In this document: one piece after another, positions 10,125-20,000 of the stretch
Layout of the letters: each line of letters opens with the position of its first letter
Numbering within the stretch: the first letter of the stretch is position 1
Virus record (IMG/VR): IMGVR_UViG_2690315748_000003
Coordinates: 45,642 to 65,641 of that record
Source of the DNA: an uncultured virus (IMG/VR IMGVR_UViG_2690315748_000003)
Lineage: Duplodnaviria; Heunggongvirae; Uroviricota; Caudoviricetes
Reading direction: 5' to 3' (one strand)
Length of the DNA stretch: 20,000 nt
Notes under the pieces: generated by a model
Told to the model about the DNA's origin: nothing
The model's database searches: none
Seen by the model: only the letters and a program-made list of their open reading frames with translations
Translations under genes and position numbers: made by a program

Positions 10125-10571
10125 ATGTTAAAATGGATATTTACCGTGTTGATAACAGTCCTATTAGCTGGATGCAGTGTACAACAAGACGTTGTAAAGA
10201 CCACTAAGAGTGACTCTGTAGCCGTTCCGGTAACGCAGATATCTGCCGATACGGTTAAGCTGGAATTCCCGTCAGCCAAGTACCCGGAAACGGCCCAGCA
10301 CATCAAGGAGGCCATTGCAGCAGGTAAGTCACCAGTATGCACCATAGATCGCGAAGGAGCCGATCATAACCGCGACCTGTCCCTAAAGGGTGTGCCCACC
10401 AAGAAGGGCAAAGATCGAGATGAATGGCCTATGGCGATGTGTGCGGAAGGTGGAGAGGGTGCAGACATTAAGTACATAAGTCCAAAGGATAATCGTGGAG
10501 CTGGATCGTGGGTAGGTCACAAGCTGGATAACTATGCTGACGGAACAAAAGTTGAATTTATCGTGAAATAG
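10125..10571 (+). CDS. nucB: NucA/NucB-family deoxyribonuclease, lipoprotein
   Basis: Lipobox [23 protein letters not shown] and [10 protein letters not shown] motifs of Bacillus NucA/NucB. Confidence 0.9.
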
Positions 10572-11760: not shown

Positions 11761-13194
11761 ATGAAGGGTGGATATGACATGAAGCATACACCTACGATTC
11801 GAGCAGAATTAGATAGTTATCTAGAACAAAAGGGTTTGAGCTTAGCGCAATTTGGACAACTTGCAGGCATGAATAGGGGAATAATAAGTGCTATTGTGTC
11901 AGGGAATAAGTCTATGTCAGTTAACCAACTTGACTTAATCACTGAGGCTATGGGTTTACCAGAGGGAGAGTTTTACGATCTGTTTATAGAAAACTACATT
12001 ATTGATCATCCTCCAAATATGAGGCGAATCGAGCCGTTTTTGTTTCGCTGTGCGGAGTTGGGCAAGTTGGATGCAATCCGTCGAGTACTGGGAGCCATCA
12101 TGGATAATCTGCTATATTCGCCCAAGCTATTTGAAATCGCAGAAGAATTATTGTCGCAGGGACGAAATGAGGCTGCTTTGCTGCTTTATGAGGGTGTAGC
12201 TGAAACAGAGAGATATCAACATTCTGAACGCTTGGCAGTCTGCCAATATCGTATATTCACGATTCAAGTTGGAGACGACCAAAGCCGCAACCACAAGGCA
12301 GCTATACTATTTGAGCCTTATGTCGAGCGCCTAGATGAAATAGACCAGCTTGACGCATTGAAGGACTTAGCTAATGTATACAGGTCTTTGCGTAAATGGG
12401 ACAAGGTAGACGAAATGGCAAGACAAATGAGAGCTAAAGCGGAAATCCAGTATAGTTTAAAACACCAAGAAAAACGTGAGTTACGAGATATTGAAAAGAG
12501 AACAAGAGGTCCGCTATTTGGATACATTGCTTATGCTGACCTATTGTGTGCAAGTGTTTGCGAAGCCCGGGGCGATTATCAGCAAGCTCTACAATATACA
12601 TACGCCTATGCGGATTTAGACTGGGTTAAAGAGACCGACGAGGACACAAGACACTGGGTAAATTTGTTCAGTCAGTGGGCAGAAGGTAATGCTTACGTAT
12701 ATAAATTGTTGTCAGGAGAAACAAATCTACTGAATGAATATGTTGAATATATTGCTGTAACATCAGCCGCTAATGAGAATGAAAAGCTCTCAAAACTGTT
12801 GAATGTTATAATCGCAGCAAACCAGTTCAGCATAAATGTAGACGATATACTCAAACGATTTGAAAAACTAATCGGGACTTTTTCACAGCAACCATCATCA
12901 GATGATATGTATACCCGACAAGTGATACCGGATTATATCGCGTGGTTTGGTTACGAGTTAGGTTTTTATTATTTACATCGAGGAAAGTACAGTGATGGCT
13001 TTAAATATTTAATGAATGCAATGGTAAAGTCACATATAATAAATAATGAAACTTACTTTATAAACTGTATGGGGTTATTTGTTCGTTTTCAAGCCCATGC
13101 GGTTCCTGAAACTAAAGCTGAGTATTTCAATCTTATTGAAAGGGTGTGGGAAAACAATGTTCAAAAAAATGGTGCTTTTAATCATTGCGGCTAG
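11761..13194 (+). CDS. XRE-HTH plus TPR-like helical regulator (RRNPP-type peptide receptor; AloR-like)
   Basis: N-terminal HTH (LSLAQFGQLAGMNRGIISAIVSG) and a long helical repeat region (LKDLANVYRSLRKWD, ARGDYQQALQY). It overlaps a downstream signal-peptide micro-ORF. The start may be the ATG at 11779. Confidence 0.75.
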   Translation: MKGGYDMKHTPTIRAELDSYLEQKGLSLAQFGQLAGMNRGIISAIVSGNKSMSVNQLDLITEAMGLPEGEFYDLFIENYIIDHPPNMRRIEPFLFRCAELGKLDAIRRVLGAIMDNLLYSPKLFEIAEELLSQGRNEAALLLYEGVAETERYQHSERLAVCQYRIFTIQVGDDQSRNHKAAILFEPYVERLDEIDQLDALKDLANVYRSLRKWDKVDEMARQMRAKAEIQYSLKHQEKRELRDIEKRTRGPLFGYIAYADLLCASVCEARGDYQQALQYTYAYADLDWVKETDEDTRHWVNLFSQWAEGNAYVYKLLSGETNLLNEYVEYIAVTSAANENEKLSKLLNVIIAANQFSINVDDILKRFEKLIGTFSQQPSSDDMYTRQVIPDYIAWFGYELGFYYLHRGKYSDGFKYLMNAMVKSHIINNETYFINCMGLFVRFQAHAVPETKAEYFNLIERVWENNVQKNGAFNHCG

Positions 13195-13279
13195 CTTTTT
13201 GTTGATTGTTACTGTGCCGGATCAAGCCTTTAACCACCACCATAGTATTCAGCCTAACGTTACCATTGGAGGATTTTAA
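13157..13279 (+). CDS. 40-aa secreted signalling pro-peptide (AloP/Phr-like)
   Basis: MFKKMVLLIIAASFLLIVTVPDQAFNHHHSIQPNVTIGGF: basic N-terminus, hydrophobic core, polar tail. Overlaps the receptor's 3' end and is followed by a terminator. Confidence 0.75.
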   Translation: MFKKMVLLIIAASFLLIVTVPDQAFNHHHSIQPNVTIGGF

Positions 13280-14591: not shown

Positions 14592-14960
14592 TCACTTACT
14601 CAGTTTATATAGGCAATATTGGTTGAAGGATATGCCTTCTGCTGCTGCACGCTCCATCAAATGCTTATGCAGGGACTTTGGAGCACGTTGAAGCCACTTG
14701 CCGCTATATTGTTCCTCATTTACTGGTTCCGGTATCTCATCACCAAACTCAAGTTTTACCTCAAGGTAACCCTCCATAGCTTCTCTAACCATTTTAAGGG
14801 CTTCTTCTGGTGTGTCACCATGGCTCTTGCAGCCTTCCAACTCCGCGACTGTAGCTAAGTGGTAGCTTCCGCTTTCGTCGTTCATATGCTTAATCTGAAT
14901 TGTATACGGGAGCGCCATGTAATACGCTATGTCTTTTTGGATCGGTTTTTCATTTGCCAT
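14592..14960 (-). CDS. hicB: HicB antitoxin
   Basis: ELEGCKSHGDTPEEALKMVREAM..IPEP plus C-terminal RHH-like YSGKWLQRAPKSLH..EGISFNQ; downstream of hicA. Confidence 0.9.
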   Translation of the reverse strand: MANEKPIQKDIAYYMALPYTIQIKHMNDESGSYHLATVAELEGCKSHGDTPEEALKMVREAMEGYLEVKLEFGDEIPEPVNEEQYSGKWLQRAPKSLHKHLMERAAAEGISFNQYCLYKLSK

Positions 14961-15007
14961 ATTAATGTAGGCTAGGATAAAATGACTTTGAGAACAAAGG
15001 GGAGGTA

Positions 15008-15232
15008 CTACTCCCCGATGATCTCCAGTACGTCTTTGACGTACGCCGCCTTGACGGGTGTTTCAAAAGGTATCGGGAGCGTGTCTCCTGACTCATTTCG
15101 GAATATGTGATGCGAACCCTTAATTCGTACCACTATGTAACCCAGATGATTCAGGACTTTTGCTATCTCCGCGAACCTAATCCCGTTAGGGCGGTTTTTC
15201 ATTTTCTCGATGATTTTATCGACCCTAGCCAT
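15008..15232 (-). CDS. hicA: HicA mRNA interferase toxin
   Basis: 74 aa basic protein with the RIKGSHHIF motif, upstream of hicB. Confidence 0.9.
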   Translation of the reverse strand: MARVDKIIEKMKNRPNGIRFAEIAKVLNHLGYIVVRIKGSHHIFRNESGDTLPIPFETPVKAAYVKDVLEIIGE

Positions 15233-15366: not shown

Positions 15367-15639
15367 TTGTTACCAGACATCGAGCGTAAGTTACTGCATA
15401 TTCTTTACAACTTTTTTGCACAGAAACGACGAATGCCAACTATGAATGAGTTGGAGATCAAGACAGGTAGGAGTGTAACGGATATAAAGGCAGGACTGCT
15501 GGCCTTGGAGAAGGATAACTATATTACTTGGGAAGACAAGTCAAACACGCAGCACATTGTAGTTCTGGAGGGCTGGGAGCGGGGGCAGATCAGACCTATG
15601 TCGGCAGGAGATGCCAGTAGATATTTTACGGAATATTAA
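15367..15639 (+). CDS. Winged-helix protein resembling the LexA N-terminal DNA-binding domain
   Basis: TTG start after AAGGAG; ERKLLHIL..MPTMNEL..GRS..IKAGLLALEKDNYI pattern; no peptidase domain. Confidence 0.6.
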   Translation: MLPDIERKLLHILYNFFAQKRRMPTMNELEIKTGRSVTDIKAGLLALEKDNYITWEDKSNTQHIVVLEGWERGQIRPMSAGDASRYFTEY

Positions 15640-15689
15640 ACCTCGGATAATCTGAGGTTTATTTTTTTACGTACTGGAAATGATATCCC

Positions 15690-15718
15690 TTGAAAGGAAC
15701 AAGTGTTCGGAATATAAT
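15690..15718 (+). promoter_or_regulatory. Sigma-A promoter with consensus SOS box in the spacer
   Basis: TTGAAA-17 bp-TATAAT containing GAAC-aagt-GTTCG (15697-15709). Confidence 0.8.
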
Positions 15719-15748
15719 TTCTACATAACACATCAGGAGGCTACATAA

Positions 15749-16081
15749 ATGGGAAAGAAACTTGAAGGTAATGGTTTATGGGAGAGTTCACGCATCATTT
15801 TGCCCGAGCATAAAGAAGGATACTTAAAACTTATGAAGGATCGCCAGCGGCGCGGTAAACCGGAGTTGGATGATCAGGAAGTACAACTGATTGAGCAAGC
15901 TCTAATAGACTCTTACAACTCACGCAACGCCGTCACGGTGACCGTATTTAGCCCGTTCGATGATACGGACATGACTGGTGTAGTTACGTCTATTAACACC
16001 GCCCGTAGGGAGGTAAAACTGTTCCGGGGTGAAGATGATTTTAGTTGGATTAAGCTGGAGGATATTATATCAGCAGGCTGA
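15749..16081 (+). CDS. YolD-like protein
   Basis: WESSRIILPEHKE..KPELDDQE..WIKLEDII pattern, under an SOS-box promoter. Confidence 0.8.
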   Translation: MGKKLEGNGLWESSRIILPEHKEGYLKLMKDRQRRGKPELDDQEVQLIEQALIDSYNSRNAVTVTVFSPFDDTDMTGVVTSINTARREVKLFRGEDDFSWIKLEDIISAG

Positions 16082-16134
16082 AAATAATTACCTCACATAA
16101 TACATAAATACTTCCATTTAACATGGTAATTGGA

Positions 16135-16180
16135 TTGCCTCTAACAAGTAACAAATATAGAATTAAAGCATATTTGTTAC
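16135..16180 (+). promoter_or_regulatory. Promoter of the agr-like operon with overlapping inverted repeat
   Basis: TTGCCT-17 bp-TAGAAT; perfect 11-bp arms GTAACAAATAT (16148-16158) and ATATTTGTTAC (16170-16180) flank the -10. Confidence 0.55.
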
Positions 16181-16205
16181 CAATTATGTGAAGGGGTTAT
16201 GTGTT

Positions 16206-16838
16206 ATGTGGGAGCCTATTAGGTTCTTGCTTTTCTCAACTGTAGAAACATTTGCGGCGTTCGTTTTAATGTTAACTATTTTCAGAGTTAGAGCTTTAGA
16301 CTATGTATGGCCTGCATTGTTTATTGGATTGATAATGAACTTGCAAAGTTTCATTTTAAGGGAAGAAACTTCTTTGGCTTTTTTTGCTCCAACCATAAAC
16401 ATTATATTGTTCACATTATTGATAACCACTGTTGTTAGGATGCCGATTATCTGGGCAGCCATCATATCCATTACAGGCACATTTTTGTATACATTATTCC
16501 AAGCGGCGATTATATTAATGCTTTTTGGTACCTTGACAACAGAAATGCAGACCTCAGCAGAAGGATCGTTAGCACAAGCGGTAACCAGTGCATGGGTGTT
16601 AGCTATTTCGTGGTTCCTGTATAAATTTAAAATAGGCTTTACAGCAGATTATGAAAATCTACGTTTTAAGTGGGAGTATGTACTCGTTATTATCTTAATA
16701 ATAGGAGTATTGGCAGCTTGTGCATTTATGTTTTACGTCAATAATTTCTTTTTGAGTATTCTATTTATTGCCTTAGCATCTGCTATGTTTTTGTATTATG
16801 CATTAAAAACGGAGCGTGATTACTATAAAAAGTCTTGA
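16206..16838 (+). CDS. Polytopic membrane protein resembling an AgrC-type sensor domain, without kinase domain
   Basis: About 7 hydrophobic segments, ending ~10 residues after the last one; no H-box or ATPase motifs; overlaps agrB. The AgrC resemblance rests on topology and context. Confidence 0.65.
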   Translation: MWEPIRFLLFSTVETFAAFVLMLTIFRVRALDYVWPALFIGLIMNLQSFILREETSLAFFAPTINIILFTLLITTVVRMPIIWAAIISITGTFLYTLFQAAIILMLFGTLTTEMQTSAEGSLAQAVTSAWVLAISWFLYKFKIGFTADYENLRFKWEYVLVIILIIGVLAACAFMFYVNNFFLSILFIALASAMFLYYALKTERDYYKKS

Positions 16839-17370
16839 CACCATCGCTCTTAATATTGCGACTCACATCAAAACAGTTGTACCTGATCATCCTTCATCTA
16901 TAGATGTTCTAAAACACGGGATAGCCGTTGCGATCAATACATTTTCAATTATTTTACTGACTATCGGTATCTCATTTTTTACGGACAGAATGCAGGAAGC
17001 TTTGCTAGCGATGATATCTTTTTCAATGTTGCGCCAAATTGTAGGAGGAATACATTTAAAGAGCAATATAGTGTGTATTATTGTATCTACAGTTCTACTT
17101 ACTGCTTTATCTTTCGCAAGTTTTAATTACAATTGGATCGTTATTACGTCGATAATAAGTATTGTGCTTATCTTGATTTATGCGCCGTCGAGGATAGAGG
17201 GGAGGACGCGTATATCAAAGCGGCACTATCCGTTGCTAAAGTTTATGGGAGTTGCAATTGTTGCTCTAAATCTGTGGTTGGCTTATCCGGTAGTAGCTGC
17301 CAGTTTTTTCGTTCAGAGTTTAACACTAATAGAAGGAGGTGTGAAAAATGAAGAAAACCAAACCGAGTAA
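16816..17370 (+). CDS. agrB: Accessory gene regulator B (cyclic peptide maturase)
   Basis: LRQIVGGIHLKSNIVC contains the AgrB R-x3-GG-x-H...C catalytic motif; YAP motif; multi-TM. Confidence 0.9.
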   Translation: MITIKSLDTIALNIATHIKTVVPDHPSSIDVLKHGIAVAINTFSIILLTIGISFFTDRMQEALLAMISFSMLRQIVGGIHLKSNIVCIIVSTVLLTALSFASFNYNWIVITSIISIVLILIYAPSRIEGRTRISKRHYPLLKFMGVAIVALNLWLAYPVVAASFFVQSLTLIEGGVKNEENQTE

Positions 17371-17494
17371 AGTAAAGGCTAGTATGTATTACAATATTGC
17401 TGCAATGTTGACAACACTTGCGGTTGCTTCAGTAAGCACGGCAAGTTTGTCATGGATTCACAGTCCCGAACCACCGAAAGAATTGTTAAAGTAA
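17348..17494 (+). CDS. agrD: AgrD-like cyclic lactone autoinducer precursor, 48 aa (not in ORF track)
   Basis: Hand translation MKKTKPSKVKASMYYNIAAMLTTLAVASVSTASLSWIHSPEPPKELLK*; RBS AAGGAGGT; amphipathic leader, S-x4 core and H-x-P-E-x-P-K-E-L tail. Confidence 0.88.
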   Translation: MKKTKPSKVKASMYYNIAAMLTTLAVASVSTASLSWIHSPEPPKELLK

Positions 17495-17508
17495 GCGGGG
17501 AATGTTAA

Positions 17509-17904
17509 ATGCTAAGTTTAACCGTATCGGCAGATCCTGGAGGTATAGAAAAGGGAGAGAATGTTTTAGTAGACAAAGTCCTTTTCATCTCTAAGGGGAG
17601 AAAGCGAGACCAGATACTGGTTCACACATTTGATAAAACATACTATATGGTAGGAACTTTGAGGCATTGGGAGAATTTTTTGAATAGTAACGGATATCGT
17701 TTTTTGAATGTGGATAGAAGTAACACTCTTAATGTAGAAAAAGTAAAGATTGTTAATGGTATCTTCAAAGATGCTTACTTTGAAGATGATATAACAAAAA
17801 CATCAAAAAGGTGTCCCATCGCTTATCACCGATTTGATGAGGTTGTTGAAGAAATGGGTTTCATAAATTCCAAAATAATCTTCACAGGAGTTGCTACGAA
17901 ATAG
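17509..17904 (+). CDS. Stand-alone LytTR DNA-binding domain protein (no receiver domain)
   Basis: VLFI..ILVHT..GTLRHWENFL..FLNVDRSNTLNVEKVK matches the LytTR pattern; only 131 aa. Confidence 0.8.
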   Translation: MLSLTVSADPGGIEKGENVLVDKVLFISKGRKRDQILVHTFDKTYYMVGTLRHWENFLNSNGYRFLNVDRSNTLNVEKVKIVNGIFKDAYFEDDITKTSKRCPIAYHRFDEVVEEMGFINSKIIFTGVATK

Positions 17905-17917
17905 CGACTCTTTTTTT
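17888..17917 (+). terminator. Intrinsic terminator of the agr-like operon
   Basis: GAGTTGCTA-cgaaa-TAGCGACTC followed by T7. Confidence 0.75.
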
Positions 17918-18144
17918 GTCGAAAATAAGTGTCTTATAATGTCGAATATTAAGAGACGTTCAGCGCCCGAATTTTTGTTGCCAAGACCCTAATATTGGGA
18001 TTTAATAGTAGTATAGTTATGTCAAAAATAGATATGTTCGATTATAGACATAATTGACTTGGGAGATAAAAAAGGGAGGGGAGTAGAGTTATCTGTAAAA
18101 AGTATGGTTCAACCATACTTTTATCCGAGGGAGAGCCAACGGGC

Positions 18145-18357
18145 TCACTCAAAGATCAGTTCGTATAAGTCTTCCATTTTACAATCGAGGGCATAGGCTA
18201 CGTTAATCATAACATCAGCAGACATTTTATCCTGATTGTTGGCCCAATTGGAAATCAAATGTCTGCTGTAGCCGGTGCGTCTAGCAAGATCGATTTGTTT
18301 TATACGACGTTCTTCGAGTAGTTCCTTTAATCGGCATCTCCCACGGGAGATTTTCAA
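18145..18357 (-). CDS. XRE/Cro-like HTH regulator
   Basis: RLKELLEERRIKQIDLARRTGYSRHLISNWANN..VAYALDCKMEDLYE. Confidence 0.88.
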   Translation of the reverse strand: MKISRGRCRLKELLEERRIKQIDLARRTGYSRHLISNWANNQDKMSADVMINVAYALDCKMEDLYELIFE

Positions 18358-18442
18358 TCAGAGATCCTCCAGTAGGTATCTATTCGTTGCAAATTATATC
18401 ACTGAGAGGCACTCCAGTAAATACGACAAAGGGCGTGCAACA

Positions 18443-18622
18443 ATGCAGGAATATCGGGTAGAGATAAAACAAAACTTAAGCCGGAAAGCAGCAGCATCTC
18501 TCGCAGAAATCATTATGATCGTACACGATATAAAAGCACCTGTTACAGTAAAAGTCGTCTCACCTTTACAAGAACACAAATTATTATTGGACAATATTAT
18601 CAACTGTAGTACGGGCGACTGA
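18443..18622 (+). CDS. Small hypothetical protein
   Basis: 59 aa from ATG 18443, divergent from the XRE gene, followed by a hairpin at about 18628-18663. Confidence 0.4.
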   Translation: MQEYRVEIKQNLSRKAAASLAEIIMIVHDIKAPVTVKVVSPLQEHKLLLDNIINCSTGD

Positions 18623-18820
18623 ATGAAAAATGAGCAGGAGGGGTAAAACCTCACTGCTCATTTAGCTTTATATCGTTAAAAAATATCCCGCAAGTTACCC
18701 GCAAAAGTGCTTGTAGATTGTTATTTTTTCTTGTAGATATAACTCACTCAAAAATCGTAAAAACCCTTTACCCTTGCGGCTTTAACTCGCTTCCTGTATG
18801 CTTGTGTAGATAACGACTTA

Positions 18821-18838
18821 TATATGTTCTACATTTGA
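18821..18838 (+). mobile_element. Probable prophage attR core: duplicated 3' end of a cymR-like (Rrf2) gene
   Basis: TAT ATG TTC TAC ATT TGA = YMFYI*, the characteristic CymR C-terminus, in its normal position just before the cysteine desulfurase. The rest of cymR is absent. Confidence 0.7.
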
Positions 18839-18848
18839 GGTGGATAAC

Positions 18849-20000
18849 ATGAACAGAATTTATCTGGATCATGCCGCATCGACTCCTATGCATCCTGAGG
18901 TTGCGCAGACTATGATGGACATCATGACCGGTCAATTCGGCAACGCTTCGAGCGTTCATGCCTTTGGCCGTGATGCCAAGCGCACCGTCAGCGCAGCGCG
19001 GGATGCCGTTGCGGCCTCTTTGGGCTGCAAGCCTGAAGAAATTATATTTACGAGCGGAGGGACAGAGAGTGATAATCTGGCCCTGTTTGGGACGGCTACG
19101 GCAGATGGTCGTACTTCCGGCCATATTATTACAACCGCGATTGAACATCACGCCGTGCTTCATGCTTGCGATGAGCTGGAAAAAGCGGGATACCAGGTAA
19201 CCTATATCCCGGTCAATGGTTTTGGGCGTGTGAATCCTGCGGATATTGAGGCAGCTATTCGCCCGGATACTTTTTTGATCAGCATGATGTATGCCAACAA
19301 TGAGGTGGGCGTCATTCAGCCGGTTCAAGAAGTAGGACAGATTGCGAGAGAGAATGGAATTATATTTCATGTAGACGCAGTTCAAGCCTTCGGGCATATA
19401 TCCATCGACTGCAAGAATCTCCCGATTGACTTACTTAGTGTGTCTGGCCATAAGATTAACGGTCCACAAGGGGTGGGTGCATTGTATATCCGTCAGGGTA
19501 CACGCATTCAGCCGCTAATGCATGGGGGACTTCAGGAGAAGAAGCGACGTGCCGGAACAGAAAATATCGCCGGCATTGCTGGGCTGGCTAAAGCCGCAAC
19601 TCTTGCCAATGCTTCCATTGAGGAGCGAGGAGCACACGATATGGCTCTTCGCCAAACGTTGCTAAAAGCGTTGGAAGGCTCTCTGGGTAGCCATGAGTTT
19701 ATAATTAACGGTGATCCTGAATATTTTGTGCCTAATGTGCTAAATATTAGCTTTCCGGCCATTGGTACAGAGACCATGCTGATGAATCTCGATATGGAAG
19801 GAATCGCAGCTGCCAGTGGATCAGCCTGCACTTCGGGGTCTCTAGAGCTATCGCATGTATTGCAGGCGATGGATCTGCCTGAAGATGTTTTGAATTCAGC
19901 GATTCGGTTTAGCTTCGGTTTGGGTAATACTACGGAAGAAATGGAATACACGGCCAAGAAAATTGAAACCATATGGAAGCGGCTGCGTACTAGGAACTAG
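18849..20000 (+). CDS. iscS: Cysteine desulfurase (IscS/NifS, YrvO-like), host gene
   Basis: YLDHAASTP, FTSGGTE, HVDAVQ, SGHK (PLP lysine), RAGTEN and SGSACTS (catalytic Cys). Confidence 0.96.
   Translation: MNRIYLDHAASTPMHPEVAQTMMDIMTGQFGNASSVHAFGRDAKRTVSAARDAVAASLGCKPEEIIFTSGGTESDNLALFGTATADGRTSGHIITTAIEHHAVLHACDELEKAGYQVTYIPVNGFGRVNPADIEAAIRPDTFLISMMYANNEVGVIQPVQEVGQIARENGIIFHVDAVQAFGHISIDCKNLPIDLLSVSGHKINGPQGVGALYIRQGTRIQPLMHGGLQEKKRRAGTENIAGIAGLAKAATLANASIEERGAHDMALRQTLLKALEGSLGSHEFIINGDPEYFVPNVLNISFPAIGTETMLMNLDMEGIAAASGSACTSGSLELSHVLQAMDLPEDVLNSAIRFSFGLGNTTEEMEYTAKKIETIWKRLRTRN

Follow-up and report, generated by a model that had tools for sequence, protein, structure and literature searches.

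A kinase-free agr-like peptide unit in a prophage and in the chromosomes of Paenibacillaceae

Introduction

Sensing of a peptide by a kinase has its textbook example in the agr system. What takes the place of the kinase in an agr-like unit that has none? The question is raised by four genes in the DNA analyzed here, a window of 20,000 nucleotides (positions 45,642 to 65,641) of IMG/VR record IMGVR_UViG_2690315748_000003, which belongs to an uncultured virus of the Caudoviricetes. These genes encode a membrane protein (here called M), the peptide-processing protein AgrB, the peptide precursor AgrD, and a stand-alone LytTR protein (here called L), with neither a kinase nor a receiver domain. The comparisons described below show that this kinase-free variant of agr is real, old, and widespread, and that it falls outside the definitions of both agr and the LytTR regulatory systems (LRS). 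The best reading of its mechanism, to which we give an even chance, is that M signals directly to L without phosphotransfer.

Gene Content of the Unit

All four genes lie on the plus strand, and the open reading frames (ORFs) of M and agrB overlap, as do those of agrB and agrD. M (16206–16838) encodes 210 amino acids (aa). Its AlphaFold model shows seven long helices (mean predicted local distance difference test score 90.9), and the charges of its loops, according to the positive-inside rule, are consistent with an N-terminus outside and a C-terminus inside the cell. AgrB (16816–17370, 184 aa) matches PF04647 (E 6.6e-18) and carries its His/Cys motif, R-x-GG-x-H-x6-C, at 17032–17076; this motif is kept in 109 of 112 non-redundant units. 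The AgrD precursor (17348–17494, 48 aa) scores over the cut-off of TIGR04223 (E 7.1e-8), and L (17509–17904, 131 aa) matches PF04397 with 25.3 bits (cut-off 22.6) and has no receiver domain. A first-pass annotation, made from the letters alone, had described four tightly coupled genes for a protein with about seven transmembrane helices, an AgrB with its catalytic His/Cys motif, an unannotated 48-aa AgrD, and a 131-aa LytTR-only protein. All of these identifications hold, and the coupling is evident in the ORF layout, the overlaps, and a clear terminator.

M as a Detached Sensor Domain

M has no match in Pfam and only one among the PHROG families, 15604 ("membrane protein"). A Foldseek search with its model gave no match at E 0.001, the best VIA-align result (Z 8.2, to Pex3) reflecting a common helical arrangement, and the ESM Atlas returned unnamed clusters only. 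With a profile built from 128 M proteins, matches were obtained in 69 of 401 Bacillota genomes, at per-genome E-values down to 8e-12 over positions 1–200, and the matches beyond those of Paenibacillaceae strength fall mostly into two classes. In the first, the profile covers the N-terminal ~200 aa of proteins of 442–496 aa; the seven that were scanned are all SPOB_a plus GHKL kinases, and agrB adjoins in seven of the nine loci read. In the second class, found in other Bacillota, proteins of 150–170 aa match the first five helices and are followed by a kinase gene; all eight partner kinases scanned (282–338 aa) are of the SPOB_a/GHKL type. At 15 loci with split AgrC-like kinases in these other Bacillota, the second gene encodes the remaining helices together with SPOB_a/GHKL. 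Alignment of M with the full kinases by hhalign reached 97.8% over 158 columns, the kinases having been preselected by the M profile. Judged by these profile comparisons, M is the detached sensor domain of AgrC-like GHKL kinases, ending where the kinase would begin, and a predicted peptide receptor, which supports the earlier proposal that the membrane protein acts as the sensor. Its conserved polar residues lie in the outer halves of the helices (S11, E14, S48, R52, Q99, and Q124), and conserved motifs are also found on its cytoplasmic side.

The homology of M and L to an AgrC-like sensor and to the DNA-binding domain of AgrA could also fit a canonical agr operon that has recently decayed and lost its function. 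This explanation is contradicted, and we regard it as hardly credible: the same truncation points of M recur at 20–25% identity across the Paenibacillaceae (190 of 301 genomes) and among cultured phages (five), the AgrB motif is retained, and an RNA run covers the genes. Among 1.84 billion representatives, 129 relatives of M were found, none longer than 242 aa and none with a fused kinase; no longer fused form was found among 8000 candidates, which is weak evidence. A fused kinase was likewise absent among the 150 genome matches listed, in which the M frames measure 193–276 aa barring one. This exception, an open frame of 426 aa that was considered as a fused kinase, proved to be a GC-rich read-through 5' of M. 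Among the 176 other matches, those of five genomes were viewed, and these contain no long frames. Kinase and receiver were lost long ago and have stayed absent, and no close homologue with a kinase was found among the M relatives. A tree sets 112 M proteins apart from the kinases and the split sensors with a node support of 0.10, which is unusable, and a single origin of M is therefore not established.

L as a Bare AgrA-Type Regulator

Within the L family, 70 of 73 proteins match PF04397 and none of the 73 matches any other family. The best solved match of the family profile is the LytTR domain of Staphylococcus aureus AgrA (E 2e-9), on which the L model can be superposed with a template-modeling score of 0.64/0.84; according to this model, L keeps the AgrA fold. 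Residues D69 (98% conserved) and R70 (91%) of L align with the HN pair of AgrA, the Asn of which, aligned with R70, we take to touch DNA. Other likely DNA-contact positions of L vary. At two loci (L073, 597–1331; L193, 9346–10068), L genes of about 240 aa apparently carry doubled or extended LytTR domains.

The Predicted Peptide and Its Dialects

The position of the peptide ring was set by the C-terminal P-x-x-L motif of AgrD. The mature peptide of the window is probably a serine lactone of five residues, SLSWI (encoded at 17444–17458), with Ser and not Cys as its first ring residue. Among 139 non-redundant units, this residue is Ser in 103, Cys in 17, and another amino acid in 19, and 102 distinct rings occur. 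Co-variation of the AgrD core with the membrane protein had been proposed as a check, and the ring does follow M more than it follows L or AgrB: its partial correlation is 0.30 with M, 0.20 with AgrB, and −0.03 with L, which represents a tendency only because the pairs share ancestry and are not independent. The ring is identical in 61 of 61 pairs with M identity of at least 90%, and in at most 1.2% of the pairs below 60%.

Several dialects can occur in a single strain. Paenibacillus ottowii MS2379 contains a 98% identical copy of the unit and four dialects together (predicted rings SLSWI, SLFYV, SYVYV, and a Lys-type ring); its SYVYV copy is chromosomal and has no L. The Lys-type rings characterize a clade of 11 loci in which the ring of AgrD begins with a residue other than Ser or Cys and has Lys at position 2 (AKVTI, EKVFL, RKSFI, EKTIF), while AgrB mostly keeps His and Cys. 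A lactam or another ring chemistry is possibly used in this clade.

Distribution in Genomes and Phages

M is present in 190 of the 301 Paenibacillaceae genomes (326 matches, 150 of them listed) and AgrB in 199 of the same genomes (329 matches), with near-equal counts of the two in each genome. Composition was read at 103 M loci with full flanks, a non-random sample taken from the best-scoring matches: 79 have all four genes, 14 have no L, 4 have no agrB, in 3 no agrD was found, 2 consist of M and L only, and 1 of M alone. L adjoins M in 88 of them. Many copies are located among housekeeping genes, e.g., rsmD and gltB (named by eye), and two or more homologues of this phage's genes were found at 16 of the 103 loci, a score that is a crude lower bound for prophages. 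In P. polymyxa-group chromosomes, an acyltransferase gene (PF01757) is followed by M, agrB, and agrD, with the ring SYVYV and without L, next to rsmD (six loci). A different type, in which the peptide has Cys and no M lies within 1.5 kb, accounts for 16 of the 30 agrB loci with the best scores.

In IMG/VR, 35 loci contain M, with agrB in all but one of those with enough flank and L next to them wherever the contig extends. Abouo, Emery, Davies, and Harrison, all cultured phages, have the four genes in the same order, and the annotation of Paisley agrees with it. The unit is a general system of the Paenibacillaceae and is not phage-specific. The survey of synteny that had been suggested for prophages confirms a recurrent four-gene unit, but not its restriction to prophages; in this respect the first-pass annotation, which treated the unit as a phage system, was wrong.

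Expression and the Downstream Element

A putative sigma-A promoter (TTGCCT-17-TAGAAT, 16135–16163, plus strand) precedes M. It matches the consensus at 9 of 12 positions and is not above chance on its own (17 found in the region, 14.5 expected); a similar sequence is nevertheless present at the equivalent position in close relatives, and the contig of a relative in an RNA run starts at 16187. The unit ends in an intrinsic terminator (17886–17912, plus strand) with an 11-pair stem and a T run, and a hairpin with a T run is found 3' of L in most relatives. In the original description of one promoter-to-terminator unit, it is the terminator that stands, whereas the promoter is putative.

Four RNA runs were compared. 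In one, from a relative with 95–99% identity, contigs cover 16187–17048 at a depth of 23, 17346–17801 at 191, the XRE gene described below (18142–18371) at 555, and the host gene iscS at 12, with the caveat that contigs give neither strand nor true level; the agrD–L contig is about eight times deeper than the M–agrB contig. The gene yolD, upstream of the unit, has no contig in this run, and the pattern of the contigs argues for transcription over DNA carry-over. Two runs available as raw reads come from strains without the prophage and have no reads on the unit, and the fourth is one flat contig that may be DNA.

Behind the terminator, two TGTCGAA boxes (17917–17923 and 17940–17946, plus strand) are identical to the 0A-box consensus given for Spo0A (PMC2731898). 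They are followed by a conserved promoter (TTGCCA-17-TTTAAT, 17978–18006, plus strand) directed at the 3' end of a helix-turn-helix (HTH) gene of the XRE type (18145–18357, minus strand; 70 aa; PF13443, E 5.5e-14), which is convergent with the unit and a candidate output. TGTCGAA occurs within 150 bp of the L stop codon in 33 of 114 units, compared with 2.0 in shuffles. An XRE-type gene faces L in 32 of the 114, mostly 216–284 bp off, and forward TGTCGAA is found in 18 of these 32 units vs. 1 of the 82 without such a gene. When 30 units of the prophage type were aligned, with an anchoring in which a box within a 30-bp window raised the score, they shared a common promoter with TGTCG mostly 47–50 bp before the −35 box. 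Scanning of 2.9 million viral contigs for the pattern of the element gave nine matches, all behind four-gene units and one on a previously unsampled contig. By its sequence, a promoter with tandem TGTCGAA boxes nearby is a candidate for control by Spo0A. TGTCGAA was also considered as a site for L, and this was ranked second to Spo0A on account of the 10–13 bp spacing, the constancy of the box while L proteins are 20–40% identical, and the occurrence of the box 3' of orphan L genes.

The XRE-linked copies are scattered on the M tree (17 changes for 24 tips; shuffles, mean 22 and minimum 17). At 12 loci L is an orphan, accompanied by a reversed TGTCGAA-like box and a convergent XRE gene but by no peptide genes; several of these loci lie in prophages, with the integrase gene on one side and the repressor gene on the other. 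A G-rich motif, GGGAG, which is often part of a hairpin, immediately precedes the XRE stop codon in the window (18060–18145) and in most XRE-linked loci; read on the XRE strand, it forms a C-rich run resembling an anti-Shine-Dalgarno sequence.

Proposed Signal Transfer from M to L

The commonest agrB-linked arrangement in Paenibacillaceae has neither kinase nor receiver. Either a membrane receptor for a peptide can therefore signal to a LytTR protein without phosphorylation, or these sensors are coupled to host kinases in a manner not yet described. According to the first of these possibilities, which we favor, AgrB would process AgrD, as its family membership suggests, to a cyclic peptide of five residues, probably SLSWI in the form of a serine lactone. 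This peptide would bind an outer pocket of M, as may be expected from the homology of M to AgrC-like sensors, and M would in turn act on L through its conserved cytoplasmic side, the simplest mechanism being to bind L and let it go. Prophage and host copies would form separate channels, because each lineage has its own ring. In the weakest step of this scheme, the output of the prophage copy would likely be the adjacent promoter facing the XRE gene, with its Spo0A-type boxes; in this way the lysogeny region would be linked to both the density of the peptide and the state of sporulation. Direct signaling from M to L is favored by loci that lost agrB, or agrB and agrD, and kept M and L intact: four with M, agrD, and L, two with M and L, and one further M–L locus.

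The matched loss of both phosphotransfer halves had been the original argument for a phosphorylation-independent circuit. The old and stable double loss agrees with it, but M, agrB, and agrD without L, and L without M, weaken the argument from matching. Direct transfer to L has further observations to contend with. The 14 loci of the 103 without L include a conserved chromosomal copy beside the acyltransferase gene and rsmD, and one draft genome has three loci with M, agrB, and agrD and no intact stand-alone L. A PAS-HisKA kinase gene lies 3' of L in five related chromosomal loci, and in other Bacillota split sensors of the same family have a kinase as their neighbor. Downstream, 17 of 21 pairs of TGTCG boxes have a spacing of 10, 11, or 13 bp, which suits Spo0A better than a LytTR protein, and the informative RNA run has no contig at 17920–18060 and does not show the predicted antisense RNA. 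L with a reversed TGTCGAA-like box and a convergent XRE gene was found without M, agrB, and agrD in nine of nine loci in one search, and the link between L and XRE is maybe older than the join to the peptide genes because of these loci. Finally, the 9-bp direct repeats of LRS, 11–13 bp apart and just before the −35 box of the operon, are not enriched: they were found at 7/9 matches in 54 of 114 upstream regions vs. 44.4 in shuffles and at 8/9 in 10 vs. 6.1, with 7/9 as the best in the window.

Some of these observations would be expected if M sensed the peptide as a subunit and controlled, in trans, a histidine kinase of the host or the phosphorelay of sporulation, with L as an accessory regulator and phosphorylation still carrying the signal. 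The split sensors beside kinases mean that action on a kinase in trans has precedent; M, agrB, and agrD persist without L; the Spo0A-type boxes lie just 3' of the prophage copies; and a kinase is found within 1 kb at 13 of the 103 loci, including the PAS-HisKA orphan. These nearby kinases, however, come from several unrelated families, none within 1 kb of the 103 loci is of the GHKL type, and 90 loci have no kinase at all, while L is kept beside M in 88. M also has all seven helices, whereas the split sensors leave the last two to the kinase. In five genomes no headless SPOB_a kinase of about 285 aa was found, all matches of the split-kinase profile that include its SPOB_a part lying in frames of 434–586 aa. 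An AgrC/AgrA-like pair is present elsewhere in three of these five genomes and was not found in the other two, one of which is complete and has two units; this genome argues against a need for a host AgrC/AgrA pair, an objection that had been anticipated. Control of a host kinase by M, perhaps of one from another family acting in trans, is in our estimate unlikely.

A further explanation is that M binds the peptide without transducing to L, as a sink, a decoy, an immunity factor, or a helper of AgrB, and that L is a separate prophage module with XRE that is merely co-transcribed. The near agreement of M and AgrB counts, genome by genome (326 vs. 329 in all) would fit such a role, as would L with a convergent XRE gene between the integrase and repressor genes of prophages that have no M, AgrB, or AgrD; the eightfold difference in depth between the agrD–L and M–agrB contigs hints at separate control. 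On the other hand, most full units are chromosomal and have no XRE gene (82 of 114), and M stays with L where agrB is lost. The similarity of M also tracks that of L beyond the share of AgrB (partial correlation 0.50 for M and L given AgrB, 0.25 for AgrB and L given M), and the phages Davies and Emery have a second M without a second agrB. We consider a non-transducing M rather improbable.

If M does signal directly to L, a broader proposal can be made, although we regard it as doubtful: kinase-free AgrC-like sensors acting on bare LytTR proteins would form a family-wide receptor class with more than 100 ring dialects, in which prophages use private dialects and, together with host Spo0A, drive an RNA against the XRE regulator by the lysogeny genes, as a counterpart of arbitrium with a cyclic peptide and a surface receptor. 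M and L would then be the first LRS-like pair with a predictable ligand, and the prophage copies offer a testable second kind of phage peptide communication, tied to sporulation state. The predicted peptides are easily synthesized.

Location in the Prophage

The unit is part of a virus contig of 65,641 bases, which is the source record. It lies inside the Paenibacillus prophage, about 0.9 kb from its right end, because reads from strains without the prophage diverge to the left of 18824. Integrase-like, peptidase-like, and repressor-like genes, recognized by eye, are found at the left end of the contig and would become neighbors of the unit on circularization. Upstream of the unit (15370–16081) are a small HTH gene and yolD (PF08863), whose homologues are the commonest phage neighbor of the unit (16 of 101 regions). 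An Rfam search over 15600–18900 gave no match.

Other genes of the window include a hicA–hicB toxin–antitoxin pair (14592–15232, minus strand) and, after the lysis genes, a gene for a lipoprotein with a NucA/NucB-type nuclease (10125–10571). At 11761–13279, a 477-aa protein with HTH and tetratricopeptide repeat (TPR) domains is followed by a 40-aa ORF (13157–13279) with a hydrophobic N-terminus. This pair may be a receptor and propeptide of the RRNPP type, a possible second peptide system of the prophage; its layout resembles that described for the Alo systems of P. polymyxa (PMC7425212).

Comparison with Known Systems

The variant was partly noticed in 2014. Hargreaves (2014; PMC3901668) described agrB and agrD in Davies, Emery, and Abouo, together with either one or two membrane proteins that have no HATPase domain, and the duplicated membrane gene was remarked on by Merrill (2014; PMC4168068); the passages on these cassettes in the former paper name no LytTR gene, mechanism, or chromosomal spread. 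The Brevibacillus phages Abouo (gp44–47), Davies (gp44–48), and Emery (gp53–57) and the P. larvae phages Harrison and Paisley have the gene order of the unit. Their membrane proteins match the M profile at E 1e-32 to 1e-37 and the fourth gene matches the L profile, but phage M is only ~20% identical to that of the window, and the AgrD rings of these cassettes start with neither Ser nor Cys and carry Lys as their second residue. Emery (L015, 2547–3948) and Davies (L017, 2544–3948) have two M genes, of which the extra one is 50–51% and the agrB-adjacent one 37–38% identical to the M of Abouo; the extra M could be a receptor for the peptide of another phage. In the full-text literature searched, which leaves subscription papers and bioRxiv supplements outside its coverage, no paper was found that deals with the unit of four genes, with its LytTR gene, or with its occurrence in chromosomes.

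The first-pass annotation held that the agr genes of Clostridioides difficile phages include a kinase. This is the case for agr3 of phage phiCDHM1; the cassettes of Davies, Emery, and Abouo, in contrast, were already known to have none. The phiCDHM1 locus shares a phage-borne agrB, agrD, and sensor gene with the unit, and is described with a 453-aa AgrC kinase and no regulator (PMC3901668), whereas the unit has a regulator and no kinase. With the canonical agr of staphylococci and clostridia (AgrBDCA), the unit has in common the His/Cys motif of AgrB, the AgrD precursor, an AgrC-like sensor, and an AgrA-type LytTR domain; it differs in having neither the AgrC kinase nor the AgrA receiver and in a ring that mostly has Ser in place of Cys (103 vs. 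17 of 139). In P. polymyxa, the Cys peptide Pp-AIP has been reported (Chen, 2025; PMC12180512), and its locus is set apart by the agrC and agrA genes listed in supplement Table S3 of that paper. Its peptide pattern matched no agrD in 41 genomes.

The unit also resembles the streptococcal LRS (HdrRM, BrsRM), as the first-pass annotation had suggested, in that a receiver-less LytTR protein is encoded together with a non-enzymatic membrane protein. The likeness does not extend to the membrane protein families or the direct repeats: as defined by Zou (2018; PMC6193735), LRS have membrane proteins of DUF3021 or DUF2154 and no peptide genes, and their signals are described there as unknown, whereas neither domain is among the Pfam matches of the 128 M proteins. 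The unit is agr-like at its peptide end and perhaps LRS-like at its output end.

Arbitrium (AimR–AimP–AimX) is likewise a peptide module of phages followed by a promoter, but its peptide is linear and imported, its receptor is a TPR protein of the cytoplasm, and it has no sequence relation to the unit. For phage Wbeta, the AimX RNA is reported in a review to be antisense to cI (PMC11945551), a layout like that of the promoter that faces the XRE gene.

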